Below are positions 9,517 through 63,963 of a stretch of 64,000 nucleotides of DNA, piece by piece. Position 1 is the first letter of the stretch. Each line of letters opens with the position of its first letter. Origin of the DNA: an uncultured virus (IMG/VR IMGVR_UViG_3300037512_001285) (taxonomy: Duplodnaviria > Heunggongvirae > Uroviricota > Caudoviricetes); the IMG/VR virus record IMGVR_UViG_3300037512_001285, positions 1-64,000 of that record; one strand, given 5' to 3'. The notes beneath the pieces are model-generated. The model was not told the DNA's origin, searched no databases, and saw nothing but the letters and a program-made list of their open reading frames with translations. Position numbers and translations under genes: made by a program.

Positions 9517-9729
9517 ATGAATATCCAACCTAAATCTAGATCGGATTGTAATAAACACGTAGTTAAACGTGAACATTACAGTAGAAAGAACGGAATTTGG
9601 AAACCAAAGAAACCTTTTGAAACTGAACAAGATGCGGTAAGCTGGATAAATAAATATAAAATGAGTGGCTATTCGGCATACATCTGTAAGGTGTGTGGCA
9701 AGTGGCATATTGGCAAAAAGAAAGTATGA
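9517..9729 (+). CDS. Small Zn-finger protein
   Basis: YICKVCGKWHIG motif; TTATTATT upstream. Confidence 0.65.
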   Translation: MNIQPKSRSDCNKHVVKREHYSRKNGIWKPKKPFETEQDAVSWINKYKMSGYSAYICKVCGKWHIGKKKV

Positions 9730-10052
9730 AACAATTAACCGAAAGTCTATTTGATAAGGATCTTACAATAAAGAATCTCTCACCCGCAGAGATAGCTAAT
9801 TTATACAAAGGGTATAAACTTAACAAAACCGATGGTACTAAGGATTGTTTTGGAACACTATTAAAGAAGGGTGATTTGGTTTTAGTATATCGCAATGCCT
9901 CCGGAATGAGTATAGGAGTGTATAATGGATTGTATAAAGAAAATAGGGGGAGACTTTGCGAAATTTTAATTCCTGATAGTGATTTAACGAGATCTCATGC
10001 TTGTTATTGTGATAGTGTATTTAAATTAACTAATATACCAGAAATTAAATAA
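9726..10052 (+). CDS. Putative virion-internal protein (capsid-targeting-like leader + SLFD tag)
   Basis: MKQLTE|SLFDKDL. Confidence 0.65.
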   Translation: MKQLTESLFDKDLTIKNLSPAEIANLYKGYKLNKTDGTKDCFGTLLKKGDLVLVYRNASGMSIGVYNGLYKENRGRLCEILIPDSDLTRSHACYCDSVFKLTNIPEIK

Positions 10053-10062
10053 AGAGCAATAT

Positions 10063-10497
10063 ATGAAAACAATAGTAGAATACATCAACGAAGGCCTTCG
10101 TCTTGACGAAGCAAAGAATGTTAAGAAAGATGACCTTCTCAAAGAGCTTGAACAAATAGCTAAATGGAATAACGAGAATAATATTAAGAAGTTAATGATT
10201 TCTTATTCTCCCGAAGACTCCAAAGTTTTTGGTAAGTCCCACTGGAAGGCTTGCGAAGAAGCAGTTGCATGGGTAAGTGATATCCTTAGAACCTTTGTCG
10301 ATAATGAAGATGATAAGGTTATTGACTTGAGTGGTCTCAGTGATTGGGTTGCCGACACTATCGATAATGAAAGTTATGATAATGAACTTAATGAAATGGA
10401 TGATGACTCAGAATCATCTCCATGGGATACCGATGCAATAATCAATCTCTTTAATACAGTCTCAACAAAAGTATGTAAAGAAGTATGGCTGATCTAA
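10063..10497 (+). CDS. Putative virion-internal protein
   Basis: MKTIVEYINE resembles the T4 internal-protein leader MKTYQEFIAE. Confidence 0.65.
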   Translation: MKTIVEYINEGLRLDEAKNVKKDDLLKELEQIAKWNNENNIKKLMISYSPEDSKVFGKSHWKACEEAVAWVSDILRTFVDNEDDKVIDLSGLSDWVADTIDNESYDNELNEMDDDSESSPWDTDAIINLFNTVSTKVCKEVWLI

Positions 10498-10991
10498 AAA
10501 ACAAAATAGACATCAAAGATATAGACCTTGAACAGTTTGATGCTGTATTGGTGCTTGACGGTGAATCTATTAATGAAGCCGGGCTCGGTGATTTAATGGG
10601 TAATAGTGGTTCAGATACTCGTGCAAATTCAGCAATAATAACTCCACAAATAGACCGAGGTGCTTATAGTCAGTATCTCAATTATCAAGACCCAAAAATA
10701 TATGCGAGTTGGTCATTTGGCCGTCAGCTCCAAAATCAACTAAATGGCATGGGTGCTGGGTTTGCTGCAGAAGTCGCAGACTTTGGACGTTACGTGAGTG
10801 CAAAAGTAACGTATAGTAATCCACCAACTGGTAAGACCGCATCAAAAGTATTTCTTGTTGTGTTTGAACCCGATGGTAAAAAAGGAAATATCTTTCAGAC
10901 ATCTAATCGTTATCGCACCTTCTCTGGTGTGGGACAAGCCGCTTCTTATATTAAGAGTTGTGTGAGTTCGTTAAGAGATAAAACTAATTAA
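10485..10991 (+). CDS. Hypothetical protein
   Basis: 168-aa ORF in operon; internal ESINEA. Confidence 0.65.
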   Translation: MADLKNKIDIKDIDLEQFDAVLVLDGESINEAGLGDLMGNSGSDTRANSAIITPQIDRGAYSQYLNYQDPKIYASWSFGRQLQNQLNGMGAGFAAEVADFGRYVSAKVTYSNPPTGKTASKVFLVVFEPDGKKGNIFQTSNRYRTFSGVGQAASYIKSCVSSLRDKTN

Positions 10992-10997
10992 TTGATT

Positions 10998-12425
10998 ATG
11001 AAACATTTACCGCAATTTATATTAGAATCACTTTTCCTCGAAGCTAATATGGCAAAGGAAACCCTTATACAAGAAACTCTTACTTGTATGTTTTTTGATG
11101 CCTGGTTTAACATGGACGAACGATTTGATAACATTAACGAGATTGTAGAGTATTATAATGCTAATAAAGATCTTATAGAAAAAATTGCAAGTGGTGCTGG
11201 ATTGACCATTAATGATTATGATGCGTTGTTTTTGGACTTAAATACCAAAGGTAAAAGTTCAGCGAAGGCGAAGCAATGGCAGAATTCATTTATATATCAG
11301 TGTGAGTCGTTTGAGAATTGGATAAATTCTCATAAGTCTTTTGATACGGATCTTGTATTTGTTCATCACGACACATCTATCGCAGTACATAATGGAAAAA
11401 TAGAAAATGGTTGGGGAATCGCTGATAGAGTTGATATTGGAACGAAGAAATTTGGATATAAGGACAAAGACATATATCAGAAAGCAGACATATATGCTAT
11501 TGTAAATAAGATAGGAAACACTCCTGAAGATGATATCAGTGAAGAAGTATCATACTGGGTAAAGTCAATCAATGGAGAGACCTCAGATAAGTTTGTAGGA
11601 ATATCTCTTAAGAAACTTGGACGTGCTCTCGGACATGTACATACATACGGAATTGATCAATCGGTTATTAACATTGATCCGAAGTCAATCAATTTCAAAT
11701 TTGATATATTCAATAATGTAGAATTTGATCCGGCACAAGGAGTACTCAAACCGGGCATAGTAACTACTTCTGTATTCTTTGATTTCGATGATGGGCAAGA
11801 AAAGAAAGAATGTAAGATTGATATTAGAGCTAATAGTAAAGGTCCTAAACATGCTATGATAGACCCTCATGTTAGCTATGGGGCGGCTGTGACAGTTGAG
11901 ATGGCTATGAAGGGAGCAAAAGCACTTGCTGGTAAAGCACAGTCACTTATATCCGAGTGGATCGGTGAGAAGATGGAATCCGCCAAGACTAAAGGTTCTG
12001 CAGATTATAAATCCAAATTAAATTACATCAAGTCAATCTTCGCTTCTGAGGGTGTAGACTTTGATGTGACATTAGATGATGCAACAACAAAATTCCTTAA
12101 TTTCCTTTCTGCTAATAACGAGAAGATCATGGATATGTATAAGTCATTTGAGAAGAACGGAAAGAACCTTGAGTCAATACAACCTTATCTTGACGAACTA
12201 GGAATCAATATGGATGGTTCTATAAAGGATATAATGGATGTACTATATGCTTCTACAAAATGGCATAACGTCTCTTGGAAAATCCTTTGTGATGTTGAAG
12301 CAATTGCAACGTACACAAAACAACATGGAATTAACGAAGCAATAACCCAAATATATAAGACCTGTAAAGGTATATCCGGGAAGGATTCAAAACCACATCT
12401 TCCATATGTTTTGATTGGAGAGTAA
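10998..12425 (+). CDS. PD-(D/E)xK restriction-like nuclease with capsid-targeting-like leader
   Basis: MKHLPQFILE leader; QE...KADIY...GISLKK catalytic-like pattern. Confidence 0.55.
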   Translation: MKHLPQFILESLFLEANMAKETLIQETLTCMFFDAWFNMDERFDNINEIVEYYNANKDLIEKIASGAGLTINDYDALFLDLNTKGKSSAKAKQWQNSFIYQCESFENWINSHKSFDTDLVFVHHDTSIAVHNGKIENGWGIADRVDIGTKKFGYKDKDIYQKADIYAIVNKIGNTPEDDISEEVSYWVKSINGETSDKFVGISLKKLGRALGHVHTYGIDQSVINIDPKSINFKFDIFNNVEFDPAQGVLKPGIVTTSVFFDFDDGQEKKECKIDIRANSKGPKHAMIDPHVSYGAAVTVEMAMKGAKALAGKAQSLISEWIGEKMESAKTKGSADYKSKLNYIKSIFASEGVDFDVTLDDATTKFLNFLSANNEKIMDMYKSFEKNGKNLESIQPYLDELGINMDGSIKDIMDVLYASTKWHNVSWKILCDVEAIATYTKQHGINEAITQIYKTCKGISGKDSKPHLPYVLIGE

Positions 12426-12452
12426 AAAAAAGGAACCTTAGGGTTCCTTTTT
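12425..12452. terminator. Bidirectional intrinsic terminator
   Basis: A-tract, GGAACC-TTAG-GGTTCC, T-tract, between convergent genes. Confidence 0.85.
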
Positions 12453-13707
12453 ATTTAATATCTACGTGTACTGCTTTATCTCTTCCGTTATTCTTGATAG
12501 TTCCAGAAGGAATGATGTATTCCTTTTTAAGGAGTTCCAGGATATGGCCTGGTGTGGTAAATTCGTCCTTATGGAAGATTTCGAAATGAACATTGAAGTC
12601 TTTTGAGTGTTTGATATCCAGGGGTTGTTTGGAATCAATCTTTAAGTGCGTCCAGCCTTCGAGTCTGGGATAGACAAACCCATCATGACAGGCGTTGATC
12701 CAGTCAACTGACTTTTCAGTAAACTTACCGTCAAAAAAGAAGTCCCTCCAATGTTCCTTCATATCCCTAATAAACAACTCTCGATCTTCGTTGGATATAT
12801 ATTTTGAATATGTATTCATTTTTACTCCTGCAAACCATCGAATACAATCTTCATCACTGATTTTTCTCAATTTAAAATCATTGTATTTATCAATCATTCC
12901 ATACCCCAACATGTCTTCCCCCACAGCGTTAACATCGGACTGAACCTGACAACTAAGACGACCACCAGCAGCTTTCATTTCAAGATTGACACCGGACTTT
13001 GTACAAAGATCCCCGTGTTTCTCTTTAGACATATCCTTAATCTTCAATCTCATTAGGTACTCACCATTACCTATTGCAGTTGAGCCGGCCTGTCTAATAT
13101 TATAGAGCTTATAAAGAAGTTCGGCTGGAATACCTGGAAACATTTTTTGATAACTATCGATGCCTTTGTTATACTGCTGAATAAACTCTATGCCAGTCCA
13201 TCTTCTTTTACAAAATTCATCATAGTAATCCTTACCATAAAGAGACTCCACCTTTACAAACGAATCAATAAATGTAAGGGCAATATCCTCTGTAAATCCT
13301 TCTATAGGGCGAATAATGCCTTTTGGAGACATTCGTGAAATAGGAAAGAAGAAACGATAGTATTTATAAACATTTGGAATAACAGTTACATAAAGCCATC
13401 GATCCTTAATAAATTCTTTCAAATTCTTTTCGTATAAAGAGACTCTCTCACGAATACGAGTAATTGTATCGTGTTTTAATTTACTTTGATTATAAGCAAT
13501 TTTTGTATTGGTTTTGTGGCGATTTCGGACACGGATCTCTCCGAGGACTGCGTAGAGAGTAGGAAGATCATATGCATATTTGGGTCTTGACTTACACCAT
13601 TCGATACGTTTGAGAATGGAGGATTCGGTTTTGTAGCGATTACGAATGATTTCCTTCTTATGGGGTTTCAGTTCGTTAGCTCTACGTTCTTTTTCTTCTT
13701 GCGCCAT
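12451..13707 (-). CDS. Putative PD-(D/E)xK-family nuclease
   Basis: IGNGEY...GDL...LEMKAAGGRL motif. Confidence 0.5.
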   Translation of the reverse strand: MAQEEKERRANELKPHKKEIIRNRYKTESSILKRIEWCKSRPKYAYDLPTLYAVLGEIRVRNRHKTNTKIAYNQSKLKHDTITRIRERVSLYEKNLKEFIKDRWLYVTVIPNVYKYYRFFFPISRMSPKGIIRPIEGFTEDIALTFIDSFVKVESLYGKDYYDEFCKRRWTGIEFIQQYNKGIDSYQKMFPGIPAELLYKLYNIRQAGSTAIGNGEYLMRLKIKDMSKEKHGDLCTKSGVNLEMKAAGGRLSCQVQSDVNAVGEDMLGYGMIDKYNDFKLRKISDEDCIRWFAGVKMNTYSKYISNEDRELFIRDMKEHWRDFFFDGKFTEKSVDWINACHDGFVYPRLEGWTHLKIDSKQPLDIKHSKDFNVHFEIFHKDEFTTPGHILELLKKEYIIPSGTIKNNGRDKAVHVDIK

Positions 13708-13710
13708 AAC

Positions 13711-14115
13711 TTAAATCAAATTTTCAAGACAATACTTTATTGCTGCTTCACAAGCTTCTTCATAGGTTTCAAGTTCCACCGTATCATAAATAGGAACTAT
13801 AGGTATATCTTTTTTTCCTATGTTAATAACATCAAAATCATACCATATTCTTCTTCCGTCATAGTCTCCAACCATTATTTCTATAAACAAGTTATGTACC
13901 TCCCTCAACCACTTCATTGCTATTTGGAGGGTCACTAAAGGACACTTCTCTTCACAATCAATAGAAGCCTCAATAGCCATATCTTTTGAAGGGAATGTTT
14001 CATACTTGTTATAATGTCTGCCACTCTTGCCAAGTAGCATACCATTACTATTCTTAAACCCCTTTTCTTTTAGGAGTTTAGCAATTTCAAAACTAACGTA
14101 GTCTTCTGTAATCAT
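13711..14115 (-). CDS. Hypothetical protein (MITEDYVS family)
   Basis: Paralog of 14297-14695. Confidence 0.8.
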   Translation of the reverse strand: MITEDYVSFEIAKLLKEKGFKNSNGMLLGKSGRHYNKYETFPSKDMAIEASIDCEEKCPLVTLQIAMKWLREVHNLFIEIMVGDYDGRRIWYDFDVINIGKKDIPIVPIYDTVELETYEEACEAAIKYCLENLI

Positions 14116-14296
14116 ATTTATTTTTCCACATCAAGCAAAAAATGAATTAAAACTGTCAACGGCCAGAAAGCAATCAATACGCCATCAGAAAGCGACTCCA
14201 AAAAATCATCAGTGTCATATAATACGCCAATCTTATCACATATCAGTGTTCCCAATAATGAATAAACTAAAAATATTAATATTATCTGAATCATAT

Positions 14297-14695
14297 CTAA
14301 ATCAAATTTTCAAGACAATACTTTATCGCAGATTCACAAGCGTCTTCGTAAGAATCTTCTACGTATGTAGAAGCCTTGCATCCATAGTTCTTTTGATAAA
14401 CAGACCACTCAAAAACCTTTCCTGTCATGTCTTCTGTAATTCGTATAAACAAGCCATATACTTCCCTCAACCATTTCATTGCCATTTGAAGAGTTGGTAT
14501 ATAGAAAAGAAGCTTGTATCTTGGATTAGATTTATTTTTGTCATCATATTGTACTGTTCTATATGTCCTGTCTCCAGAAGGGTCACCACCCCAGTAAGAA
14601 GTAGATTCTGCATACCATACGGTACATGGGCTATCAAACCCCTTTTCTTTTAGGAGTTTGGCTGTTTCAAGACTAACGTAATCTTCTGTAATCAT
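14297..14695 (-). CDS. Hypothetical protein (MITEDYVS family)
   Basis: Shared MITEDYVS.E.AKLLKEKGF, AMKWLREV, AIKYCLENLI. Confidence 0.8.
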   Translation of the reverse strand: MITEDYVSLETAKLLKEKGFDSPCTVWYAESTSYWGGDPSGDRTYRTVQYDDKNKSNPRYKLLFYIPTLQMAMKWLREVYGLFIRITEDMTGKVFEWSVYQKNYGCKASTYVEDSYEDACESAIKYCLENLI

Positions 14696-14870
14696 AATTA
14701 ATAAGAGGTGTCTTTACAAATTGATTCCCCGCAAAGTTTGATTTCCACAGTAATATTGTGTTCATCAGGTTCCATCCAAGTATCATAATAACCAACATCG
14801 TGTTCTGGATGCCGAACTTCGACTGTTAAATTCTCTTTTAGAAATTGTATTAGTTCTTCCTTATTCATAT

Positions 14871-15137
14871 CTATTCCTCCTTTCTCGTATCAAGAACTTG
14901 GTCAATATAAGTTCGTGCGTAAAACCGGATATCATCTTTCCATACTTGGCGACGCATTTTTATAAGTTGTCCATCTTTGTAGAAAAAGAATGTCAATCCT
15001 TTCCCCAGACCAGATAACATAATAACATCGTATCCTTTATAGGACATTGTTTGTAGATGTTGTGGATTATGTCGTTGTTTCAAATATTCAAATTTCTCGC
15101 TGTAAGAATATCTTGCATTCCTTTCGAATTCGGTCAT
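14871..15137 (-). CDS. Hypothetical protein
   Basis: ORF in tight operon. Confidence 0.65.
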   Translation of the reverse strand: MTEFERNARYSYSEKFEYLKQRHNPQHLQTMSYKGYDVIMLSGLGKGLTFFFYKDGQLIKMRRQVWKDDIRFYARTYIDQVLDTRKEE

Positions 15138-15140
15138 ATT

Positions 15141-15410
15141 CTACCTCTCATTTCTTGCGTTAACCCCAAGTTCGTAGAAGTGGCGAAGCATTTTATTGCA
15201 CTCACACCAAGTCCATTTCCCATTTTTACAGGAATCTTCATCACCTATCCAATTAAGAATCTCTTTCTCCAAATCCACCTCCGGCTGCTCCTGCTGGAGA
15301 GAGGTGATGAAATTATACAAATCATCCATAGCCAACTTTAATTGCCAGCTTGGATATTTATCTTTCAGTCTTTCTATCTCGGCAATCAGCTTTTCTGTGT
15401 CAATGTACAT
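15141..15410 (-). CDS. Hypothetical protein
   Basis: IDTEKLIAEIERL, QQEQPEVDLEKEI, recalled from Bacteroidales phage proteins. Confidence 0.7.
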   Translation of the reverse strand: MYIDTEKLIAEIERLKDKYPSWQLKLAMDDLYNFITSLQQEQPEVDLEKEILNWIGDEDSCKNGKWTWCECNKMLRHFYELGVNARNER

Positions 15411-15495
15411 AGACTATAATTTTTTCAATTGTTTATATATAACAAATTATTAAAAAACATTTAACTATTTTATATGAAATCATAATTATATTAAC

Positions 15496-17349
15496 ATGAG
15501 TTCATTCAATCCAATAAAAGAAGATAAAGAAGGAGTAATCGCAAAACGAACTATATGGTCTACCCAGTCGGTTAATATGGCACTTCGTGGCCTAGAACAA
15601 GGACGTAAGTTGGTCGCTAATCCGTTCTACGAGAACAACACAAAAATTCTCAAAGGGGACTTGGTGTTTGAGAGAACTCCTGAGGAGATTGCCGAATGGA
15701 AGCATTGTGCAAACGACATCATATATTTTGTAGAGAAGTATTGTAAGTTGATGACTCCAGAGGGAATTCAAAATATCGTCTTACGAGATTATCAAGAAGC
15801 ATACTTGCGTCACCTAGAGAAACATAGGTTATCTGTGATGCTCTCTGCACGACAGGCTGGTAAGACAACGACATCTGCACTGTTTATGTTGCATTATATA
15901 TGTTTCAACTTTGATAAGAATGCACTCGTGTTGGGTAACAAAAGGAAGACCGCAATTGAAATACTTGACAAGGCGAAAAAGATATTTATCGAACTCCCGT
16001 ACTTCTTGAGACCCGGTGTATATAAATGGAACGAAGCTGAGATCGTTCTAGATAACGGATGTAGACTGATGGCGGAAGCAACCACGATCAACTCGGGTAT
16101 TTCATTCACGTTCCACTGCGTCCTCGCAGACGAGTTTGGGCACATTGCTCCAAACATCTTGGATAAGTTCTACGAAAACCTATTTCCTACTATCACTGCT
16201 GCAAAGGCACGATTTATGATTACCTCCACACAGAACGGATATAATCTCTTTTATCGTATATATAAAGCAGCTGAAGCTGGGGAGAATGAATATGCTGCGT
16301 TTAAGGTTGACTGGGATCAGATACCTGAATGGAACCCCGATAAGCGTTGCTGGGAACCGAGAACCGAAGAGTGGCACCGGATGCAGATAGCAAACTACGG
16401 CTCTGAAGAAGCCTTCAATCGTCAGTTCGGTACGGACTTTGATGTGGATGCTAACACATTGATTAATAAGAAGATACTAAAGACCTGTCAACACGATTGT
16501 CAAGAATTCATTAATAAAGACATTCCCGGAGTGTCACTAGCCAATCATTATTATTGGAGTCCTGACTACGACCCAGTATCACAGCTCAGAAAAGATTATA
16601 TTATCGCACTCGGAGACCTGGCGGAAGGAGTAGAGAAAGACTATACGCATTTTAATATATGTAGGCTTATTGAACCTGACTCCGATAAACTTGAATGTGT
16701 GGGGTACTACAGGTCAAATAACGTAGATCGAAAGGATATTGCGAAGTCTCTTATGGAACTCTGTTCGATTCAATGTGACCAGAACCACACTCTTCTTTCA
16801 TTCGAGAGAAACACCTACGGAGAACTCTTCCTTAAACACATAGAGGACTTCGAAGAGAAAAACACCATTCCTGGATTTGATAAGAGTGTGTTGGTTAAGT
16901 TCTTTAATGATAGTGGAACGAGATTTGAATATGGTGTTAGGATTACTCGCGGAAACAAATCCAATATGTGTATTCTCTTTAAGGAGGATTTTGAGAAGGG
17001 GCGAGTTATAAACAAATCAACAATCTTCTGTTCCGAGCTTTTGAACTTCTCCGATCCCGAAGAGAAAGGTGTTTGGAAAGCTGCGTTTGGTCATGACGAT
17101 GCTGTGATGTCTATGATTCAATATGAAGCGGTAAAGAAGACCCTTCAGTTTACACTCCTCAAACAGGAATTCGATTCAATGGCCGGGCAAACCGATACAA
17201 GTTATAATCCATATTCTAATATATATGATACATTGACTCCTACCTCAGATGATATTTATGGGAGATTTTTAGAATCGGGGTGTAAAACGTTTGCTGAGTT
17301 TGAATCAAAGGAATCAGAGAGACGATTAGGTGGATGTAGATTGATGTAA
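15496..17349 (+). CDS. terL: Terminase large subunit (T4 gp17-like)
   Basis: LRDYQ, Walker A RQAGKT, Walker B VLADEF, ITST.NG, nuclease GDLAEG...HDD. Confidence 0.95.
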   Translation: MSSFNPIKEDKEGVIAKRTIWSTQSVNMALRGLEQGRKLVANPFYENNTKILKGDLVFERTPEEIAEWKHCANDIIYFVEKYCKLMTPEGIQNIVLRDYQEAYLRHLEKHRLSVMLSARQAGKTTTSALFMLHYICFNFDKNALVLGNKRKTAIEILDKAKKIFIELPYFLRPGVYKWNEAEIVLDNGCRLMAEATTINSGISFTFHCVLADEFGHIAPNILDKFYENLFPTITAAKARFMITSTQNGYNLFYRIYKAAEAGENEYAAFKVDWDQIPEWNPDKRCWEPRTEEWHRMQIANYGSEEAFNRQFGTDFDVDANTLINKKILKTCQHDCQEFINKDIPGVSLANHYYWSPDYDPVSQLRKDYIIALGDLAEGVEKDYTHFNICRLIEPDSDKLECVGYYRSNNVDRKDIAKSLMELCSIQCDQNHTLLSFERNTYGELFLKHIEDFEEKNTIPGFDKSVLVKFFNDSGTRFEYGVRITRGNKSNMCILFKEDFEKGRVINKSTIFCSELLNFSDPEEKGVWKAAFGHDDAVMSMIQYEAVKKTLQFTLLKQEFDSMAGQTDTSYNPYSNIYDTLTPTSDDIYGRFLESGCKTFAEFESKESERRLGGCRLM

Positions 17350-17378
17350 AAAAAAAAGAACCCCGAAGGGTTCTTTTT
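17349..17378. terminator. Bidirectional intrinsic terminator
   Basis: A-tract, GAACCC-CGAA-GGGTTC, T-tract. Confidence 0.85.
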
Positions 17379-18671: not shown

Positions 18672-18696
18672 AATTAATTAGTTATAAAATTTAACA

Positions 18697-20651: not shown

Positions 20652-20680
20652 GAAATAATATATAAAAAAGAAGGAATCAA

Positions 20681-22156: not shown

Positions 22157-22160
22157 AACT

Positions 22161-33335: not shown

Positions 33336-33779
33336 TTATTCGTTTATAATTCCGTATTCCTTAGCACAATTCCAGTTAATCTTAAATACATTATCATGAT
33401 CAAGTAACCACACGTCAAAACCGAGGATTTTGAACTTATAAGTTATCTTTTTAATCATCTTTTCACCAGTCGCCGTACCTTGATTGTATGGAGTTATTCC
33501 AAATATCTCAGCCGGAAAATCTGTAGTGAATCTACTTACACTTACAGTGTGATTGTCTAGTCCCAGCTTCACATAATAATATATATAAGATACTACATCA
33601 TTTATAACGGAATCTATTGTTTCTTCAGGAATAAAATCAAGACATTGAAAGTCATCCCGGCTGTACATATAATCTACAGCGGAATGACCTATATTCTTAC
33701 TCACACTATCATGCAGATTGAAAATTGTCTGTGCGGTGATAGTAGGAGATTCTATTATATCTTTATCAAAGAGACTCAT
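33336..33779 (-). CDS. MSIF-tag family protein (outlier)
   Basis: MSLFDKDIIES. Confidence 0.8.
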   Translation of the reverse strand: MSLFDKDIIESPTITAQTIFNLHDSVSKNIGHSAVDYMYSRDDFQCLDFIPEETIDSVINDVVSYIYYYVKLGLDNHTVSVSRFTTDFPAEIFGITPYNQGTATGEKMIKKITYKFKILGFDVWLLDHDNVFKINWNCAKEYGIINE

Positions 33780-34190: not shown

Positions 34191-34610
34191 TTAATTTTCT
34201 TCTTCCCAATTGATTTCTATATACTTACCAAGCATCGTTGGGTCGTCATCGTATACGTCCCATTTTATTTTCATCTTGAATCCGCGTTCCTGAAAATATT
34301 TACAAAACTCAACGAACTTCGGTTCTAGGTCTTTCCCGTGAATACCCTTGTTATCATACATTAGTTTTTTCACGTTTGTCCCTTTCTTAAAAGCACTAGT
34401 TAATCCCAACGCTTTCGGACAAATCCTATGATAATAAACCACACGCGGAACGGAATACTTTACTTCATCGTAAATAACTCCCAATAGTTTATCACAAGTG
34501 GTCTCGAGAGGTTCTCCTTCTGGTGGAACCATCCGTTTACTTATGAGATCCCTCAGAAAACTTGCGGTGATGGGGTTATCCGCGTTTATATTATCGTTAA
34601 ATATGCTCAT
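34191..34610 (-). CDS. MSIF-tag family protein (outlier)
   Basis: Start reassigned to MSIFNDNIN; ITA and GF...I.W shared with 33336-33779. Confidence 0.8.
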   Translation of the reverse strand: MSIFNDNINADNPITASFLRDLISKRMVPPEGEPLETTCDKLLGVIYDEVKYSVPRVVYYHRICPKALGLTSAFKKGTNVKKLMYDNKGIHGKDLEPKFVEFCKYFQERGFKMKIKWDVYDDDPTMLGKYIEINWEEEN

Positions 34611-45678: not shown

Positions 45679-45979
45679 ATAGAGCCAAGACATTACTGCC
45701 CTGGCGAGTACCTCCCCACTGGAGGCACACCCTATAAGGCCTATCCCTACAAGGATTTCTTTTCAGCTCCTCTCCAAGCAGTCTTCACAGATACCACCCA
45801 AAGAGGTTTTTTACTCATATTATATTTCTTTCAGACTTGTCAATGAACTAGATATCTACTTGTGCTGAGCGCCAGCCTCGGACGTTTCCTGTTCCTCCTC
45901 CACTTTCAATATCTCTTACAGATTATATATACTAAACTCACATCGAACATTTAGTGATTTTCTTATATATTTTCTCTTG

Positions 45980-46052
45980 TGACCCCAGTGAGACTCGAAC
46001 TCACGATCCACTCTTTAAAGGAGAGTTGCTTTACCAGCTCAGCTATGAGGTC
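45980..46052 (-). tRNA. tRNA-Lys(TTT), intronless, C33
   Basis: ACTCT-CCTTTAA-AGAGT; same acceptor stem as the intron-containing copy. Confidence 0.8.
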
Positions 46053-51383: not shown

Positions 51384-51456
51384 ATATAAATAACAAAGAG
51401 AGACTGTATATTTAATACCGTCTCTCTTCCTTTGAGTGATATAGTTAGTGTTAAAC

Positions 51457-52044: not shown

Positions 52045-52051
52045 ATATTAG

Positions 52052-53032: not shown

Positions 53033-53034
53033 AT

Positions 53035-54105: not shown

Positions 54106-54191
54106 GTATAAATAATAATAAAACAACCAATAAAAATAAATCAACCCACAGCCACCCGAGAATTTCAATCCAATAAAAAAAAAGAGATTGA

Positions 54192-56336: not shown

Positions 56337-56416
56337 ATTGTAAAATATTTAATTTTCTGAGAAAAAATAGAGGCACCTGTAAAAACAACTGCCTCTGGTA
56401 AGGTATTTATTATGAA

Positions 56417-56887
56417 TTATTTACGTACAAATTTAAGATTTAAGTTTTGACAGGGGAAGATTTGTATTTCATCAAAGTCCCCATCTAACATATTTTGTTC
56501 CTGCCCAACCACATACCGGCCGTTCTTATAAATCTGAACAGAAACATGTTTATACTTCTCTGATAGGCTCGCTTGATAATATGGATGTAATATCAAATTA
56601 AGATAATCCTTAAAGAGGTCTGTGGTCTCAGTATCCGGAGTAAATTTAATCTCATTAATTATTTTTAATAGCCCTCTGTATATTGTTTCATTCTCCGTAT
56701 CACATTTAATTTTAGATTCTTTTCTAATTCTAACGGCACTCATATATTTTGAAAAGAATATCGTGTTGTGATCACTAAAATATGTATTTAATATTGGAGA
56801 TTCAACCAACTTAAATACGTCACCAAAGGTTAGATCTTTAGTGATATTCTTTTCTGTGTCAAATAGGCTTTCTACTAAACTCTTCAT
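56417..56887 (-). CDS. Putative virion-internal protein
   Basis: MKSLVE|SLFD. Confidence 0.65.
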   Translation of the reverse strand: MKSLVESLFDTEKNITKDLTFGDVFKLVESPILNTYFSDHNTIFFSKYMSAVRIRKESKIKCDTENETIYRGLLKIINEIKFTPDTETTDLFKDYLNLILHPYYQASLSEKYKHVSVQIYKNGRYVVGQEQNMLDGDFDEIQIFPCQNLNLKFVRK

Positions 56888-57399
56888 GACTTTACTTTGT
56901 CCTTTTGGTATAGACGTTCCTTATACCAACCAGGGAGTTTTTTAAGGGAATCACAATCATCAAACATACCATATATGTATTTTAGTTTACGGGGATTCCA
57001 TTTCTCCAGATTTTGATTGAAACGTTCACATCCCTCAAACATGGATTCTGCATCTTTAAGATTACTTACATCCCACCCAGATATATCACAGTTAAAATAC
57101 TTACAATTACAGAACATTTCATACATGCATGTTACTTTCTTTGTATTCCACTTTGAGACATCATAGTTGTACAAATAATACGGTATATCACTTTCGGGAT
57201 CATAGAATATATGTCCCATATCATCAACATCTTTGGTGTTTATCCAATTGAGATCAACAGTTTCTCCTTCTTTGGGGTTAACTGTTTTTAAGTATTCGTA
57301 TACAGTCTGGTGTAACTCCTCCCAAGACTTTGGGTGAGCATTAAATGTGTCTTTAGAAATCAAATCCTTATCAAACAAACTCTCTGCTAAACTCTTCAT
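56884..57399 (-). CDS. DUF285/BspA-like repeat protein with capsid-targeting-like leader
   Basis: MKSLAE|SLFDKDL; W(N/D)..V..M..MF repeats. Confidence 0.75.
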   Translation of the reverse strand: MKSLAESLFDKDLISKDTFNAHPKSWEELHQTVYEYLKTVNPKEGETVDLNWINTKDVDDMGHIFYDPESDIPYYLYNYDVSKWNTKKVTCMYEMFCNCKYFNCDISGWDVSNLKDAESMFEGCERFNQNLEKWNPRKLKYIYGMFDDCDSLKKLPGWYKERLYQKDKVKS

Positions 57400-57439
57400 A
57401 CTAAACAATAAATTATTTAGATCTTTGATAATCAATTCA

Positions 57440-59140
57440 TTATCTTACTGCATAACCATGTCCATCGAGGATTGGACGAGCCAAGTCATTGATGACACAT
57501 TGTTCGTGATTAGTTGTATACTTTATAGTTTCCTTCAATATGTCTTCGTCAGACATCCAGCCACGATAGTATTTAATATTAGTCATAGCCACAGGCCACC
57601 CATGGATCTGACATTGTCCTTCAGAAATGAAATTACCCACAGTTTCGTTAGTGACATTATTGGCGGAGTTCTTCTTTAAAACGTATGAAAGATTAAATGC
57701 TTTATTAAAGTCTCCTGTTTGATTAAATATGGGATTCTCAAAGTCCCACCAATACATTTCTGGTTTTAAAAGATAAGGAGGCATGTCACTACGATGAACA
57801 TAAAGATATACATTCATATCAATAGTTAGGTTACGGGCATTCCATTTGAGAATAACCATATACGTACTAAACGGCTCAAGTTCTGCAGTAAAATCACTCC
57901 AAGATAAATAGAATTTTTCTCCATCCGAATTAACTGTAACGCTTATATCACCAAACCGCAATATTTCTTTTTCTGACAATACGGAAGGGTCACCGGGTGT
58001 CTCTATTATAAATGACAACCACCCAGCCTCTCCACATATAGGTTCTTGATAAATAACACAACCGTTTTCGTTTTTGAATCTATATATATTTCTTGCAGTT
58101 ATATTATTGTGGTGACAATACAATTTATCTTGTACTGTTATATAATCTATTTGATTGTATTCGTTTGCCGATATTTGTTTTCTTACAGCATCCTCCATAA
58201 ATATATCATATAAGTTTGTTGCCGAGAATCGTGGTGAACTCAACTGTGGGCTACCACTCTCTCTTTCTTGCTCAATAGTTTCTTTCTCACCAAATGTATC
58301 TTCATACTTATTCACAAGCCATCCATCAATTAAGTCGCTAAAGTCTCCCTTATCCACATTAGTCTTTTCATTATATTTGACTAAAGCTAATTTCCATGTA
58401 GTAGGTCTCCATAAGAGTCCTTCATTCTTTTCATCGTATGCGCTGTTAACTTCCCATAACCTCTTCATGAGTGGAACATAGACAAGGTCTCGTTGTTTTG
58501 GAAATGCTGTATCACCAAATGCTCTCGCAAACTGACTCTTACTTAACTCAGTCTCCCAGTCAATTTCCCAATCAAAATCAAAATCTGTGAGTTTTGGATT
58601 ACTGGAAGGCATAGTACCATCAGGAATCATGAGTTTCATTTGTTTGATATCAACAACATTATGTAACGTCCACTCCTTGAAAGTATAGTCAACAGATTCT
58701 GGATTTGGAGTCACTCGTAAGTAGTAAATGGGAATACCCAACATACATATAATTGAATCAGCCATTTGTTGTTGCAACTCTAATGCACAATCAAGCCCCG
58801 TATATGGTTGGAAGAGATTACTTCCTTCACAAAAATCCTTTAAGAATGCATTACTCTGATCAAAGCAGATACTATAACAATTAGTAAGCATACCATTATA
58901 GTACACTTTACTCAATCCACCAAAGATTAAGATTCTCAAAAAGTAATCACTTTCGAGATTCTTTGCAAGTGTATTATACTGCATCCAACTAACCCAACTT
59001 GTCCAACAAGCCCCGTCAGTACTCCAACTGAACTGACACTCGGCTGTGACATCAACATCAAGATTATCTACGATCTTTACAGGACCATAAACTACTGCTT
59101 CATTAAAGGTTATTATGCGTTTTATAGGACATCCAGTCAT
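57440..59140 (-). CDS. Neck/head-completion protein (T4 gp14-like domain)
   Basis: GIPIYYLR, FG...PK..DLVY.PL...LWEV; near portal. Confidence 0.6.
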   Translation of the reverse strand: MTGCPIKRIITFNEAVVYGPVKIVDNLDVDVTAECQFSWSTDGACWTSWVSWMQYNTLAKNLESDYFLRILIFGGLSKVYYNGMLTNCYSICFDQSNAFLKDFCEGSNLFQPYTGLDCALELQQQMADSIICMLGIPIYYLRVTPNPESVDYTFKEWTLHNVVDIKQMKLMIPDGTMPSSNPKLTDFDFDWEIDWETELSKSQFARAFGDTAFPKQRDLVYVPLMKRLWEVNSAYDEKNEGLLWRPTTWKLALVKYNEKTNVDKGDFSDLIDGWLVNKYEDTFGEKETIEQERESGSPQLSSPRFSATNLYDIFMEDAVRKQISANEYNQIDYITVQDKLYCHHNNITARNIYRFKNENGCVIYQEPICGEAGWLSFIIETPGDPSVLSEKEILRFGDISVTVNSDGEKFYLSWSDFTAELEPFSTYMVILKWNARNLTIDMNVYLYVHRSDMPPYLLKPEMYWWDFENPIFNQTGDFNKAFNLSYVLKKNSANNVTNETVGNFISEGQCQIHGWPVAMTNIKYYRGWMSDEDILKETIKYTTNHEQCVINDLARPILDGHGYAVR

Positions 59141-59157
59141 GTATAAATAATAAAGGA
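59138..59157 (-). promoter_or_regulatory. Candidate late-promoter motif TTATTATT
   Basis: TCCTTTATTATTTATACATG, identical at 60805-60824; variants before portal and endonuclease genes. Confidence 0.55.
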
Positions 59158-59184
59158 GACCCTTGTGGATCTCCCGTATCTTTT

Positions 59185-59586
59185 TTATACAACCTCACTT
59201 GCTAGCTTTTGAGGATCACTTATCTTGAAGACATATTCCGATGGTCTACTTATTCTTTCAATTGATTCAGACCATGAATACCTACCTTCTTTTGGAAGGA
59301 AAAGAGCGATACTTACTTGTTTCTTTACAGCAATTGCTTTCCCTATATTAAGTCTCTTTCCTGTTCCCCAATGACCACCAGCATCCAAGAACACCACCCA
59401 ATCACCGGGTTCAACCTTCCTACCGAGACAATCACATCCCGTTCCACTAATAGTTACGCCGCCGTTACCAACAAGCCAATCAATTAATTGTTTCTCCCAG
59501 TTGGGTCCACTTTCGATGTTCTTATCAAGATCAAAGACGCTCTCGTCAACAGTAGCATCTGATATGTATTCTTTAATGTCTTTCAT
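59185..59586 (-). CDS. Putative virion-internal protein
   Basis: MKDIKEYI...DE|SVFD; DC.G....GD.V shared with 9726-10052. Confidence 0.65.
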   Translation of the reverse strand: MKDIKEYISDATVDESVFDLDKNIESGPNWEKQLIDWLVGNGGVTISGTGCDCLGRKVEPGDWVVFLDAGGHWGTGKRLNIGKAIAVKKQVSIALFLPKEGRYSWSESIERISRPSEYVFKISDPQKLASEVV

Positions 59587-59622
59587 ATTATCTTCCTTTT
59601 GTATATTTATTTTTGCCATTTC

Positions 59623-60156
59623 TTATACGAATATATTTTCAATTACATTTCCACCCATATCATATACAATACCTCCACAGAGTTCAGGATGCTTATTAAC
59701 CATCTTTTTAATAATTGGTTCAGCTTCGCGGATGGCTTTATTATCCTCGCGCGCTTTAAGAATAACCCTATCATAGTCTGCCTCTGTAGCACTATCATGG
59801 AGTTCGTCTTCGTCCACATCACCATTTTCATAGTCAGTCAGAACATCAGGATCGTACTGAATAAATGCCACCTCGAACCCGTCTTGTGCTTCATTTAAAG
59901 ACTCTGTGCAAACTTCTATATCATTTCTCTTAATAACATCATTGTCTAGGATAAAGTATGAAGCAATGAAAAGTTTTTTACAATCATCTCCTTCTTTTTT
60001 ATATACCGCCCAATTGTTTTTTGATGTTTTATGAACACATATATCTTTCATATCAATGTTTGGATCATATGCTTTACACATACCAACAAACTCGCGATAT
60101 TTGCGTTCACATCTATCAATATTGCCTTCGTTTATTATTTGAGCTAAATGTTTCAT
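59623..60156 (-). CDS. Putative virion-internal protein
   Basis: MKHLAQIINE; internal ESLNEA. Confidence 0.65.
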   Translation of the reverse strand: MKHLAQIINEGNIDRCERKYREFVGMCKAYDPNIDMKDICVHKTSKNNWAVYKKEGDDCKKLFIASYFILDNDVIKRNDIEVCTESLNEAQDGFEVAFIQYDPDVLTDYENGDVDEDELHDSATEADYDRVILKAREDNKAIREAEPIIKKMVNKHPELCGGIVYDMGGNVIENIFV

Positions 60157-60174
60157 ATTCAATTAATTATATAT

Positions 60175-60807
60175 TTATTTCTTATCTTCATAAATAAAAA
60201 GAGTTACTTGAATACTATATTTTTCTTCGTTATAACTAGCTTTATCTGCAATCACATTCCAAAGAGCCACTTTCCATCCATCAATATTCATAGTCGGTCT
60301 AGTATGTAACTGATTCAAATCTCTACCAGACAATACAATTTCTTGTTCATCCGTTACAAATGGTACATTTGAAAAGTCTTTCGTCTTGAAGAAATCCACG
60401 AGTGTTAAATACATCTTATTGATATATTCATACTCTGGCATTTTCTTATTTATGTTGTTATCAAACACACTTTCTTCAATAGTTGTATTAAATAATTGTT
60501 CTATTGCTCGTGAAAGCGTGGACTTATTTATATTATTAGAGCCAAGATCAAGAGTGGTCATCAATACTATTTTATAACCGACATACTTGGTATTCTCACT
60601 TTTGTATCTTACAATATCCCCTTTATTCCACCACCATTTTCCAGCATCCACCTTTTCCCAACTTGATAGATTATTATCTTTATGATTTGGCCATTTTGGT
60701 AAAGTATCTACTAGTTCATCACATACTTCAGTTGCGACCTCTTTGTAGTTATCACTGGTCTTCCAGCGCCTCAATGCTTCGAATATGTAATTTACTAAAT
60801 GCTTCAT
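60175..60807 (-). CDS. Putative virion-internal protein
   Basis: MKHLVNYIFE; internal IEE|SVFDNNI. Confidence 0.65.
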   Translation of the reverse strand: MKHLVNYIFEALRRWKTSDNYKEVATEVCDELVDTLPKWPNHKDNNLSSWEKVDAGKWWWNKGDIVRYKSENTKYVGYKIVLMTTLDLGSNNINKSTLSRAIEQLFNTTIEESVFDNNINKKMPEYEYINKMYLTLVDFFKTKDFSNVPFVTDEQEIVLSGRDLNQLHTRPTMNIDGWKVALWNVIADKASYNEEKYSIQVTLFIYEDKK

Positions 60808-60851
60808 GTATAAATAATAAAGGAGATCATTTAGATCTCCTAGATTTGAAT

Positions 60852-62846
60852 TTATTCTTCTTCGGAAGATTTCTTCTTTTTCTTTTTCTTTGTTTGTTTT
60901 TGATCGTCATCCTCAACAGGTTTGTTCTCTTTTTTCTTTTCTGCTTCTTTCTTTTGTTTATCCTTAATGAGATCTTCTACAACAAGTTTTAGTGAATCAT
61001 CTTGAAGAAGTTTTTCTGTTATGTTTGCTGCTATCTTATTCACTATAGATTCCCAATCATAGTTATCGCCATTTACCCTATCCAAGGCAGCAGAACCCTG
61101 ATCCAAGGCAGCAGCGCCCTTATCTGCAGCAGCCATAGCTTCAGCATCAGATGCTTCGCCACCAGCGAGATGAAGTTCTTCAATTTCATCTTGTTTGAGT
61201 TTGTTATTGAGTTTGAGGTCTTGATCTGATAATTTCAGGTATTTCTTCACCAAGAACTCAGATGAGAAGTACTTAATTTCATTTCCTTCAACATCCATAT
61301 CAATCATACTGTCTTTCATTGTTTGGATATGGTCGACGCGCTTTTGCATCAACTCTAATTCCATCATCTCTTCAAACAGATTGTAACTCTTAAACTGAAG
61401 GCTCACGGCTTCAAGAATTTGTTTATTCTCTTGTAGCTCTGGAATATCAAGTGCAAGCTGAATCTTAAGGGGTTTAAGCATAATTTGTGCAAATTGATTA
61501 CGAAGTCTATTCACAAATCTTGCAAAGTCAATCTCAATCCTTGCAGTGTTTGTTGCATCCGTACCAAACCATGTCTCACCACTTTCTTGGTCAAACCTAC
61601 TGAGAGGAATCTTAGAAATCTTATAAAGTTGGTTCTTGAAGTACTTCAACTGATCGTTATCATTGAGATCAGGACCATCACCACCGATACTCTCAATCTG
61701 TGGGCTACCACTATCACCTTCGGGCATCCAATACTCTTTATTGAATGGCATTGTCGCCTGTCCGTTAATTGTCAATTCGCCAGTATCGCCAATGAACTTG
61801 ATATCTTCTTTATATCTATTCATTGCACTCATAACAGTTTGTTGACCAGTGGCTTTGTTCATACCCTTAATAGGAATAGTGAACTTCATCTTATAGGAAC
61901 TGTTAGTAATTGTCCAAATAAGTTGAGCCTGCTCAACAATACGATAGATATTAAACGGACGAATAAGTCTCTCGAGATAACTCACGCGCGAAATAGCATT
62001 GGTTTCTTGATATGCTATATAAATAACCTGACTATCAAGAAGAGTACGTTCACGTCCTTGAATACCCTTAAACTGCACCCAATACCATTTACCATTTTCA
62101 TATTTTCTAGTGAGCGTGGCAGCATCAAGTGGAACAAGCCCAATGATTCTTGTAGGCTTCTCAAGCGAGTCATACACAATTTCCCAACTTAAGTTACCTT
62201 CAACTAACCATCTCTTAAAATCATCCCATGCATTATACTTCCAATTCAACATCTTATAAAAACGACGAAAATGAGTATTCATAGAATCCTCTACTTTCTT
62301 CGCAGCTTCTTTAGCAAGATCTTGTATCTCAAGTGGTTCAATAAATGGTTCTGCAAAATAAGTCAAATCACCATCATACACGATGCCTTCATTTGACATT
62401 GTATCCAGGATATCTTCAAGTTCTGGTTGAACTGCAAGTTTACGGAGAGCTTCTCTCTTCTGTGCATAATCCTTTTCAAAGAAGTTTTTATCAGCATTAC
62501 TCTTTACCTTCCAAGAATTAATCATTTGATTGAATAAGTCTTGATTCTCGAGCTGTGTTTCTTTAGGAAGGAGATTCTTATCTGCAGGGATAGCGCGCAT
62601 GTTTTTTACAACATCGTCTTCATAGTCCATTCCCCAACGGGCCATGTTAGAAAAGAACTTTGCGATGGTTCTCTTCTTTTTCTTCTGCTCCTGTTCCTGT
62701 GCATATCTTGGACGGAAGTTTGTAGTTACATTAAATCCTGGTATATTCTTTGGATCAAGTGGTTGCCCGAGTTCATATCCTTCTCCAATAAACACACTAC
62801 TGCCATCGCTTCCTGGTTTTCTTTCTATTTGAGTAGATTCATTCAT
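60852..62846 (-). CDS. Portal protein (T4 gp20-like)
   Basis: PELEDILD, WLVEG, SYLER..RPFN, EYWMP, LKYF...LY..SKIP.SR, EI.F.RFV.RLR. Confidence 0.92.
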   Translation of the reverse strand: MNESTQIERKPGSDGSSVFIGEGYELGQPLDPKNIPGFNVTTNFRPRYAQEQEQKKKKRTIAKFFSNMARWGMDYEDDVVKNMRAIPADKNLLPKETQLENQDLFNQMINSWKVKSNADKNFFEKDYAQKREALRKLAVQPELEDILDTMSNEGIVYDGDLTYFAEPFIEPLEIQDLAKEAAKKVEDSMNTHFRRFYKMLNWKYNAWDDFKRWLVEGNLSWEIVYDSLEKPTRIIGLVPLDAATLTRKYENGKWYWVQFKGIQGRERTLLDSQVIYIAYQETNAISRVSYLERLIRPFNIYRIVEQAQLIWTITNSSYKMKFTIPIKGMNKATGQQTVMSAMNRYKEDIKFIGDTGELTINGQATMPFNKEYWMPEGDSGSPQIESIGGDGPDLNDNDQLKYFKNQLYKISKIPLSRFDQESGETWFGTDATNTARIEIDFARFVNRLRNQFAQIMLKPLKIQLALDIPELQENKQILEAVSLQFKSYNLFEEMMELELMQKRVDHIQTMKDSMIDMDVEGNEIKYFSSEFLVKKYLKLSDQDLKLNNKLKQDEIEELHLAGGEASDAEAMAAADKGAAALDQGSAALDRVNGDNYDWESIVNKIAANITEKLLQDDSLKLVVEDLIKDKQKKEAEKKKENKPVEDDDQKQTKKKKKKKSSEEE

Positions 62847-62908
62847 AGTTAAATAATAACGGTATAGTTAACATAAAAAAAGAACTTTCAAAAGAAAGTT
62901 CTTTTAAA

Positions 62909-63395
62909 TTAACTTAACCAACCTTTACTCTTCCACTTTTTAAATATTGATGAAAGTTTGGCTGTTGCTGGGCTATGTTTACGTATCCAAAGAGATAATC
63001 CATTTTGTTTATAGACTTTCATTACATCTTTAACAGGAACTGATACTGAATAAACCTCAATATCATATCCACCACGATCTCCAACCTGACCCCAATAGGC
63101 ATAATCTACATTAATATCATCAACCTTATTCCAATTCACTTTACCAATTATTCTATCGAGATTCTTAGGAATAGACCAATGTTTGCCATCATCCCATTTT
63201 ACCCCTCCGTTTGCACACATATACCCACTACAATCTTCTGGAGTCCATATGAGACATACATGATTCCTACCTTTCATATGAAAGATTATCATCAACATGT
63301 TCTTTTGATACAAGTGCAAGAACATGTACATTATCATCACTGGTAGCTGGACCAGTGAGCATTGCTTCGTTTACTATATCGGTTAGATGTTTCAT
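62909..63395 (-). pseudogene. Frameshifted virion-internal-protein-like gene
   Basis: MKHLTDIVNE frame stops at 63267; the +1 frame continues to 62909. Confidence 0.55.
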
Positions 63396-63396
63396 A

Positions 63397-63963
63397 TTAG
63401 AATCTTCCGTATTTCTTTTCAATATATTTCCATGCTTCAACTGGATCATCAATGAATGTCCTTGGAACGTCGGACCATTCATCATACTTATGGTTGCTCT
63501 CTTCTGCGCTCTTTGGTTCGATCCACTCAACTGGACGAAGGGTCTTACCAACACGACTTGCAGCTGCGGTTACAAGGAATGACCATTCGAACATATTTAT
63601 CGAGATGAATGGGTTATATACTACGACATAACCTTTAGGATTAACTCCACGAGAAGTGTCAAAGTAGAGCTCAAGAACGTTACCATCTTTGGTGATTTTT
63701 GACTTCTGCCATTGTTTGATGTTATTGTCAACCATTATCTTATCAACCTCAATCATTGACTTCATCTTCTTCGCTAACTCCTCAGGTTTTTCGCGACCTT
63801 CTTTTATACGAGCAATAAGAATATCCTCAACTGTTGAGTTCTTATTATAAGGCATTAATATTCTTTTGAATATATATCTCAAATCCTCACCAGAGAGTAT
63901 ATCTGCAAAATCCTTAACGGGATCGAAAATAGATTCTTTTACATATGATACAAGATGTTTCAT
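63397..63963 (-). CDS. Putative virion-internal protein
   Basis: MKHLVSYVKE|SIFD. Confidence 0.7.
   Translation of the reverse strand: MKHLVSYVKESIFDPVKDFADILSGEDLRYIFKRILMPYNKNSTVEDILIARIKEGREKPEELAKKMKSMIEVDKIMVDNNIKQWQKSKITKDGNVLELYFDTSRGVNPKGYVVVYNPFISINMFEWSFLVTAAASRVGKTLRPVEWIEPKSAEESNHKYDEWSDVPRTFIDDPVEAWKYIEKKYGRF

Follow-up and report, generated by a model that had tools for sequence, protein, structure and literature searches.

IpI, IpII, and IpIII, which are internal proteins of phage T4, are small, mostly unrelated proteins with 10-residue MK leaders ending in [ILV]-x-E; they have nothing in common beyond this leader, and each inhibits a GmrSD restriction enzyme (PMC12373910). 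The leader is a capsid-targeting signal (CTS), in which, for IpIII, residues 4 and 7 serve targeting and residues 8 and 10 serve cutting, and the T4 prohead protease gp21 cleaves after Glu (PMC9026906). T4 Alt, a packaged and ejected ADP-ribosyltransferase, is cut at ITE-6 (PMC5694885), and in another phage group, that of phiKZ, 201phi2-1, and SPN3US, tens of head proteins are cut after Glu, with redundant cut sites in the propeptides and with ejection proteins that are paralogues with identical N termini (PMC5694885, PMC9026906). We analyzed a 64,000-nucleotide stretch of DNA from an uncultured Caudoviricetes virus (IMG/VR record IMGVR_UViG_3300037512_001285, positions 1 to 64,000; hereinafter, the window), together with the complete genome that contains it, in which a large set of small proteins share a short N-terminal segment (hereinafter, the tag) that either directly follows the initiator Met or stands behind a T4-type MK leader. 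We read the tag, with the chances about evenly balanced, as a divergent, duplicated T4-type head-loading signal carried by two differently timed sets of cargo.

Comparison with known head-loading systems

The window makes up the first 64 kb of a virus contig of 74 kb. A complete copy (G001; 239,809 bp) holds it at 100% identity, closes on itself, and was taken as the whole genome for genome-wide counts, from which G012, the same phage, was left out. The element is a T4-like jumbo myophage with a portal, a large terminase, a gp23-type capsid protein, a tail sheath, and a family B polymerase; the closest named portals (Sphingomonas PAU, Tenacibaculum PTm1, and Lak) are 32 to 36% identical. An earlier note on this DNA, made from sequence alone, had supposed T4-type leaders and a gp21-type protease, and both are present in the genome. 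The relevant head genes are as follows:

G001 positions 117993 to 119756: gp23-type capsid protein (Gp23, E = 5e-25)
G001 positions 164331 to 165809: gp21-type prohead protease (phrog_207, E = 3e-44; Pfam S77/S80 above the cut-off; protease domain, about residues 1 to 165)
G001 positions 210509 to 211762: putative core protein
Window positions 60852 to 62846, minus strand: portal protein (phrog_213, E = 1e-70), which marks a T4-type head

As in T4, a gp21-type protease and a gp23-type capsid protein accompany small proteins, for the most part unrelated in pairwise comparison, with 10-residue MK leaders ending in [ILV]-x-E, and the cargo genes lie partly outside late control. Unlike the T4 internal proteins, of which there are three, the tagged genes number about 65, with further plain leaders besides; most leaders are cut to six residues that run directly into a conserved SLFD-x-[DN]-[IL], 35 genes have the segment but no MK, and the proteins are neutral to acidic. 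Alt provides a second likeness in its six-residue propeptide followed by a hydrophobic-Phe-Asp stretch: it continues LFDED after the cut, and Alt and the six distant homologues fetched all (7/7) start with [ILF]-x-E/[VL][FL][DE], where the slash, here and below, marks the junction after Glu. It differs in that it has no Ser or Gly after the cut and is one large enzyme whose stretch may belong to the folded domain, whereas the tagged proteins matched no enzyme family; a protein search with Alt retrieved near-identical copies only. In the phiKZ group, the propeptides mostly exceed 100 residues, and the available portions of those articles mention no Met-start twin class. The leader class is of a known kind on a larger scale. 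What is new is the Met-start class, which shares the segment under a separate promoter class and is tied to a CTS by its register and a candidate second cut site. In the literature covered, mostly outside subscription journals, we found neither an account of the tag nor one of an N terminus created by cleavage that has a Met-start twin.

A shared segment in two contexts

The earlier note had quoted eight proteins as carrying S-[ILV]-F-D. Each string is present where it had been placed, and six of the eight have S-[ILV]-F-D; the other two, ILE/SLFLEAN (gene starting at 10998) and LSE/SLFVDTQ (residue 81 of the 22568 gene), have SLF only, without the Asp or the later [DN]-[ILV], and are not the tag. 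Extended comparison shows that the common segment spans seven to nine residues rather than four and that its first residue may be Gly in either class. The Met form follows the pattern Met-[SG]-[ILV]-F-[DSN]-x-[DN]-[IL], and the leader form has a like segment behind MK...[ILV]-x-E. The Met-start form accounts for 21 of the 93 window genes, namely the 19 of one array and two single genes. The genes concerned, with the tag coordinates of the leader forms, are as follows:

1198 to 8388, minus strand: array of 19 Met-start genes (70 to 164 aa, many with 4-nt overlaps) downstream of a 5'-3' exonuclease gene
5854 to 6234, minus strand: folded Met-form example within the array (model mean predicted local distance difference test score, 79.6)
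9726 to 10052, plus strand: short-leader gene, MKQLTE/SLFDKDL (leader, 9726 to 9743; tag, 9744 to 9764)
10063 to 10497, plus strand: canonical 10-residue leader MKTIVEYINE, untagged
10998 to 12425, plus strand: canonical leader MKHLPQFILE followed by SLFL, full tag absent
33336 to 33779, minus strand: Met-form gene, MSLFDKDIIE, in which residues 8 to 10 form a protease-type I-x-E
34191 to 34610, minus strand: Met-form gene, MSIFNDNI
56417 to 56887, minus strand: short-leader gene, MKSLVE/SLFDTEKNI (tag, 56849 to 56869), of the largest leader-class paralog family
56884 to 57399, minus strand: short-leader gene, MKSLAE/SLFDKDL(I), with a DUF285 (BspA-like repeat) body (tag, 57361 to 57381)
59185 to 59586, minus strand: long-leader gene, MKDIKEYISDATVDE/SVFDLDKNI (tag, 59521 to 59541)
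60175 to 60807, minus strand: two-module fusion with canonical leader MKHLVNYIFE and internal IEE/SVFDNNI at residue 113 (tag, 60451 to 60471)
63397 to 63963, minus strand: canonical leader MKHLVSYVKE followed by a partial tag, SIFD only, the rest being missing (63913 to 63933)

The array genes start with M-[SG]-[ILV]-F-[DSNTGC]-x-[DNH]-I, and none of them matched a PHROG or Pfam family at E ≤ 0.001. Genome-wide, 36 genes of G001 start with M-[SG]-[ILVM]-F (0.43 expected) and 31 have E-[SG]-[ILVM]-F close to the start (1.8 expected). A stricter filter retains 35 Met-form and 30 leader-form genes, which occupy 33.1 kb, or 13.8% of the genome. The enrichment test that the earlier note had proposed gives a positive result: E-S-[ILV]-F-D lies within 20 residues of MK in 5 of the 93 genes of the window and in 23 of the 323 genes of G001 (mean of 0.01 and maximum of 1 in 200 shuffles).

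Positions on which genes had not been selected agree between the two classes in a core clade consisting of G001, G003, G004, G013, G014, and seven loci, from which distant-locus prohead proteases starting LE/G[IV]F[ST]E had been excluded before counting. Position +6 is D, N, or H in 52 of 66 Met forms and D or N in 58 of 77 Glu forms, and position +7 is I, L, or V in 47 of 66 and 57 of 77, respectively; the [ILV] at P3 of all 77 leader forms was forced by the search pattern and is not evidence. When the flanks at -1 and +1 were left unconstrained in 629 core-clade proteins, 90 of 110 matches showed Met or Glu followed by Ser or Gly, versus 0.17 of 11.1 matches in shuffles. A profile built from the first 30 residues of 49 short-leader genes retrieved at least 315 clusters at 50% identity. 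The observed pattern is real and larger than first claimed.

Leader architecture and register

Among the 30 tagged leader genes of G001, the leader is six residues followed by SLFD in 21 and exactly 10 residues in 6; canonical leaders (10-residue MK leaders with a hydrophobic residue 4, aromatic residue 7, [ILV] at 8, and Glu at 10) number 13 in the same genome. The short leader MK[ST]LxE corresponds to residues 1 to 6 of a canonical leader, which in other leaders continues as YINE/FINE (two variants) or S-[ILV]. SLFD in the short-leader genes occupies positions 7 to 10 of the 10-residue CTS; Lys2, Leu4, Glu6, and Leu8 agree with the canonical form, and Ser7 and Asp10 differ, although Asp10 still permits targeting in T4 (PMC9026906). 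Leu at +2 is found in 42 of 44 short-leader genes versus 9 of 17 long-leader genes (P = 3e-4), and we therefore consider it constrained as leader position 8.

The same register extends to the Met form. Counted from Met or from the leader Glu, the tag reads x-[SG]-[ILV]-F4-D-x-[DN]-[IL]8-x-(E10), which is the canonical leader spacing, and an [ILV]-x-E ending exactly at residue 10 of this register is found for 11 of 46 families of the Met form and 8 of 30 of the short-leader form, versus 6 of 218 untagged small proteins. Any [ILV]-x-E in +8 to +20 is found in 22 of 46 and 15 of 30 families, respectively, versus 19% and 13% of body windows. The 46 Met-form starts have a mean score of -8.3 on a matrix built from 114 canonical leaders, all taken from records lacking the Met form, compared with -14.6 ± 1.0 for shuffles (maximum, -11.7 of 1,000). 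On positions 6 to 10 alone, which were not used to pick the tag, Met forms outscore untagged genes (P = 2e-8). Training leaders such as MKLFTEQILE closely resemble the Met form MSLFSENIIE.

Cleavage sites and fusions

The G001 protease retains invariant His, Ser, and Asp motifs in 6/6 aligned sequences; a PDB sequence search with it gave no match. A packaged protein cut at residue 10 would lose its tag. Internal strict tags in the hit proteins P0001 to P0243 follow Glu in all nine instances, eight of them as [ILV]-x-E, and the MK is lost in four. The window gene at 60175 is one such fusion of a leader and an internal tag, and G004 has a comparable one with INE/SIFDNNV. Methionine aminopeptidase strips Met ahead of Ser or Gly, the two residues with which the tag begins.

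The protease itself continues into a fused scaffold-like tail, in which [WY]-[ILVC]-x-(x)-E recurs at intervals of 12 residues (residues 268 to 352). These repeats resemble leader positions 7 to 10 and might provide a basis for co-assembly; a complex prediction of the tail (residues 214 to 492) with a Met-form arm (residues 1 to 35) scored 0.02.

At G001 positions 233028 to 233687, a small leader protein that contains a poly-Lys run is joined to a tagged module (KKKKKKMKSLAE/SLFD), and in G002 and G009 the first part of this fusion is a separate small gene. At G001 positions 76100 to 77482, a 460-aa sigma-70-like protein has the canonical leader MHNFTQYITE, kept in G002, G004, G006, G007, and G008; it is possibly a head-packaged sigma factor for early transcription.

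Upstream motifs separate the two classes

Two occurrences of a motif that is a putative late promoter lie ahead of leader-gene units in the window:

59141 to 59153, minus strand: TTATTATTTATAC, ahead of the head-closure gene that leads the unit with 56417 and 56884
60808 to 60820: same motif, ahead of the unit with 59185 and 60175

The hexamer TATTAT was chosen from annotated units only, where it precedes 14 of 18 structural and 5 of 39 replication units. Across four records, it lies upstream of 14 of 29 leader units versus none of 23 Met units (P = 6e-5), and in G001 alone it precedes 9 of 15 versus none of 13, which holds at three gap settings (P = 0.0008 to 0.02). This is the difference in upstream motif to be expected between late and nonlate genes. 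For the Met class, what is established is only the absence of the late motif and not an early motif; the "early" motif ATATAT, chosen by eye, did not separate the classes in a trained test (5/23 versus 4/29).

The two routes to one free N terminus envisaged by the earlier note, one for virion-packaged injected proteins and one for newly made ones, are supported by the Met and Glu contexts, the Ser or Gly start, the promoter split, and the Glu at fusions. The exclusion of the newly made set from the virion does not follow from an early-type promoter. T4 ipI, ipII, and ipIII are classed as early for RNA and as late for protein, and alt is given as middle RNA and late protein in the table of the same article, the text of which terms it late (PMC9697503); because ipI to ipIII are early transcripts, the lack of a late promoter does not bar Met-start proteins from the head.

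Protein bodies and their history

By pairwise comparison, the 65 tagged genes of G001 fall into 59 groups. Profile comparisons merge at least nine leader-class families into one superfamily (hhalign, 85 to 99%), and five Met-form families have no profile link among themselves or to leader families (best probability, 3.7%). Family scans of the tagged proteins retrieved nothing in PHROG or Pfam besides DUF285 on a few (2 of 129 hit proteins) and one weak PHROG of unknown function. The tag is portable because the DUF285 bodies carry it too. In both folded examples, the tag is predicted as a low-confidence arm ahead of a folded body; in the 5854 to 6234 protein, the modeled arm spans residues 1 to 9 and is followed by two helices and then a beta-meander, and the 56417 to 56887 model likewise has an arm of low confidence. 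Fold searches with these models gave no viral match at E ≤ 0.001. Their best PDB Z scores, 6.5 and 4.1, place both weakly near gp25/TssE/IraD-like folds, beneath a meaningful level, and an ESM Atlas search with two proteins gave no usable match.

The tag is kept between orthologues with bodies 38 to 45% identical (positions +1 to +3 were used in gene selection). Orthologues retain their class within the core clade, and no class switch was seen among 61 and 45 full-length homologues retrieved with profiles that included the N terminus. In G002, two Met-start genes belong to a leader-gene body family (E = 3e-6 to 1e-3; 3e-16 by profile); leader loss has therefore occurred at least once. A tandem insert, SLFDSKTQMTE, is encoded by near-identical DNA on unrelated genes in four records, which points to 5' cassettes copied between genes. 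Among G001 genes, the tag Ser has an AGY codon in 24 of 26 of the leader class and 29 of 31 of the Met class; AGY is frequent at codon 2 of untagged MS genes as well (29/36), synonymous codons vary under constant residues, and G002 encodes the same peptide with TCN/GGN codons.

In relatives, the position after the leader is filled differently. G006 has E/SILD there and a Met-start class of one MSVLD gene, and G009 has E/GL[RK]INK on the same DUF285 body and no Met-start class. At least seven such G009 genes were found, some with DUF285:

G009 positions 801 to 2395: GL[RK]INK genes
G009 positions 228866 to 230511: GL[RK]INK genes

A G008 homologue of the body of the 9726 gene has a plain 10-residue leader. 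The tag class is absent from G007, G008, and G009, single genes aside (G008 and G009 being incomplete), and the patterns used found no such class in 200 of the 542 kb of Lak-A1 (code 15), covered as four slices of 50 kb.

A proposed head-loading signal on two timed cargo sets

We propose that the tag is a divergent copy of the T4-type CTS that, in this phage clade, would load many small proteins into the prohead. In late genes it would act in tandem behind, and overlapping, the MK leader; in genes without the late motif it would act alone, with proteins made earlier and loaded later, as for T4 IpI to IpIII. Both classes would attach to the core of the prohead. Cleavage by the gp21-type protease would occur at the leader Glu and also, in proteins that retain E10, behind the tag. 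Elsewhere, the tag would remain as a short flexible arm, like the post-cut residues of T4 Alt. By analogy with IpI to IpIII, each of which counters a restriction enzyme, the cargo would be injected at infection and probably act against host defenses. Core binding, cleavage, packaging, injection, and function are all extrapolated from sequence features, packaging being better supported in the leader class than in the Met class.

Several observations weigh against this proposal. It implies some 65 to 80 cargo species, far above the four of T4. The median isoelectric points (pI) of the two classes are 5.65 and 6.31, and 10 of the 66 Met forms and 15 of the 61 leader forms have a pI above 8, unlike the basic T4 internal proteins. 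The Met-form matrix scores lie far under those of true leaders (median, -9.2 versus 14.7), and the Met form has neither Lys2 nor an aromatic residue 7, and residues 4 and 7 are those on which T4 targeting depends (PMC9026906); the Met form falls outside the canonical leader class, so that for it one may suggest only that it works like a CTS. E10 is absent from 32 of 46 Met-form families (present in 14). In G002 and G005, the tag follows a full 10-residue leader, where it would be redundant. Twenty tandem duplicates keep the full tag in the body-proximal copy and SLFD only in the first, and two proteins have lost the first Glu yet retain the second, a combination that would suit a tag required on the mature protein. 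The families share descent, and their counts are not wholly independent.

If the head-loading interpretation is correct, such a signal can act without an MK leader and often without a cut, which would give a wider rule for predicting injected phage proteins. About 65 unannotated proteins per genome would become candidate injected counterdefense factors, as would at least 315 clusters (50% identity) of the leader form alone, likely with Bacteroidales hosts. It would also suggest that T4 Alt, with its six-residue propeptide, is targeted by residues straddling the cut.

The earlier note had instead proposed an address. The leader would load and mask the tag, and protease or Met removal would free the same Ser or Gly N terminus, which one factor would bind; the early proteins would never be packaged, and binding by this phage or host factor would determine where about 65 proteins go, switch them on, or set when they are degraded early in infection. 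We think this rather unlikely. It accounts for the segment nearly always following Met or Glu and starting with Ser or Gly, for the Glu before all nine internal strict tags and the TATTAT split, and for a tag conserved on an arm modeled with low confidence while bodies diverge, on different folds including DUF285; the body-proximal full copies in the 20 duplicates are its best evidence left. Ser or Gly after Glu or Met, however, is also expected from the usual preferences of both enzymes. In both classes, about a quarter of families have a protease-type site immediately behind the tag, and a cut there would strip packaged copies of the address; the relatives use other post-Glu segments, such as GL[RK]INK on the same DUF285 body, and the single G006 gene is all they have by way of a corresponding Met-start class. 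That the tag fills leader positions 7 to 10 in the short form, keeps the leader register in the Met form, and in about a quarter of families has its own protease-type site after it speaks against an address surviving at a free N terminus. No candidate receptor or other reader of a free N-terminal SxFD was found, and we likewise consider improbable the specific form of the model in which two different peptidases would expose a free N-terminal [SG]-[ILV]-F-D-x-[DN]-[IL], on about 30 proteins that are injected and 35 early ones that are newly made, for a single phage or host factor to read. Were it true, 14% of the genome would feed one docking site in early infection, through an N-terminal addressing pathway undescribed in phage infection.

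Unlikely to a somewhat greater degree is that the tag is an inherited 5' cassette with no reader. The MK-leader genes would then be ordinary CTS cargo and the Met-start genes unpackaged products of leader loss and promoter change, with the segment retained for its effect on translation initiation or on the stability of the N terminus, or as a helix cap (S-x-x-D). The body family shared by Met-start and leader genes in G002 fits such an origin, as do the superfamily uniting at least nine leader-class families, the tag DNA copied between genes, and the mostly AGY-coded Ser. Yet five Met-form families are unlinked to leader families and the classes never switch among homologues; the residues hold while synonymous codons vary, with TCN/GGN used in G002, and AGY is common in untagged MS genes. 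This reading also leaves the E10 enrichment in the Met class unexplained.

Far less credible is mimicry of the bacterial beta-clamp-binding motif, QL[SD]LF, by which the tag would tether proteins to replicating DNA. The letters SLF are shared, the phage polymerase itself ends in a clamp motif (EMSLFDF here, Q-[LM]-[SDN]-L-F in six relatives), and no clamp was found in G001, G002, or G006. The tag differs in being N terminal, in having no conserved Gln two places before the Ser or Asp (10 of 77 leader forms have one at that place, and none is possible in Met forms), and in permitting Ile or Val instead of Leu (50 of the 66 Met forms); Asp never occurs at +1, [DN]-[IL] is required further on, and the polymerase motif is retained in relatives without the tag. 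A ClpS N-degron, which requires N-terminal Leu, Phe, Tyr, or Trp after processing, was rejected since proteins of either class would begin with Ser or Gly.

Replication proteins, host, and other observations

Family scans of G001 found no phage clamp, clamp loader, or gp41-type helicase. In G001, an intervening gene divides the family B polymerase into two pieces (187552 to 188463 and 189696 to 191669); the polymerase is in one piece in G002, G005, G006, G008, and G009. The 5'-3' exonuclease at window positions 8388 to 9482 (minus strand) ends in IESIFEEI; a hydrophobic-IF-[ED] tail recurs in six of seven relatives and may be a clamp- or partner-binding motif.

Because of a DUF3575 gene, the best QueC match (48% identity), and scarce Shine-Dalgarno-like sites (16 of 246 genes), the host is likely a member of the Bacteroidales. 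Translation table 11 suits the genome. A Bacteroidales-type lipoprotein/DUF3575-OmpA gene cluster lies at G001 positions 87510 to 91468, and a reverse transcriptase lies beside long tail-fiber-like genes at G001 positions 121453 to 122628. One metatranscriptome run covered a small share of the region, with several short contigs at 99 to 100% identity in both gene classes, which are silent on transcription, strand, and timing.

The window encodes 19 tRNAs. One, at 45979 to 46052 (minus strand), has the anticodon TTA and would read the stop codon TAA, yet TAA is the main stop codon. At 13711 to 14695 (minus strand), two paralogues start with MITEDYVS (phrog_12005), of which G004 has five; these form a second small family sharing an N terminus.

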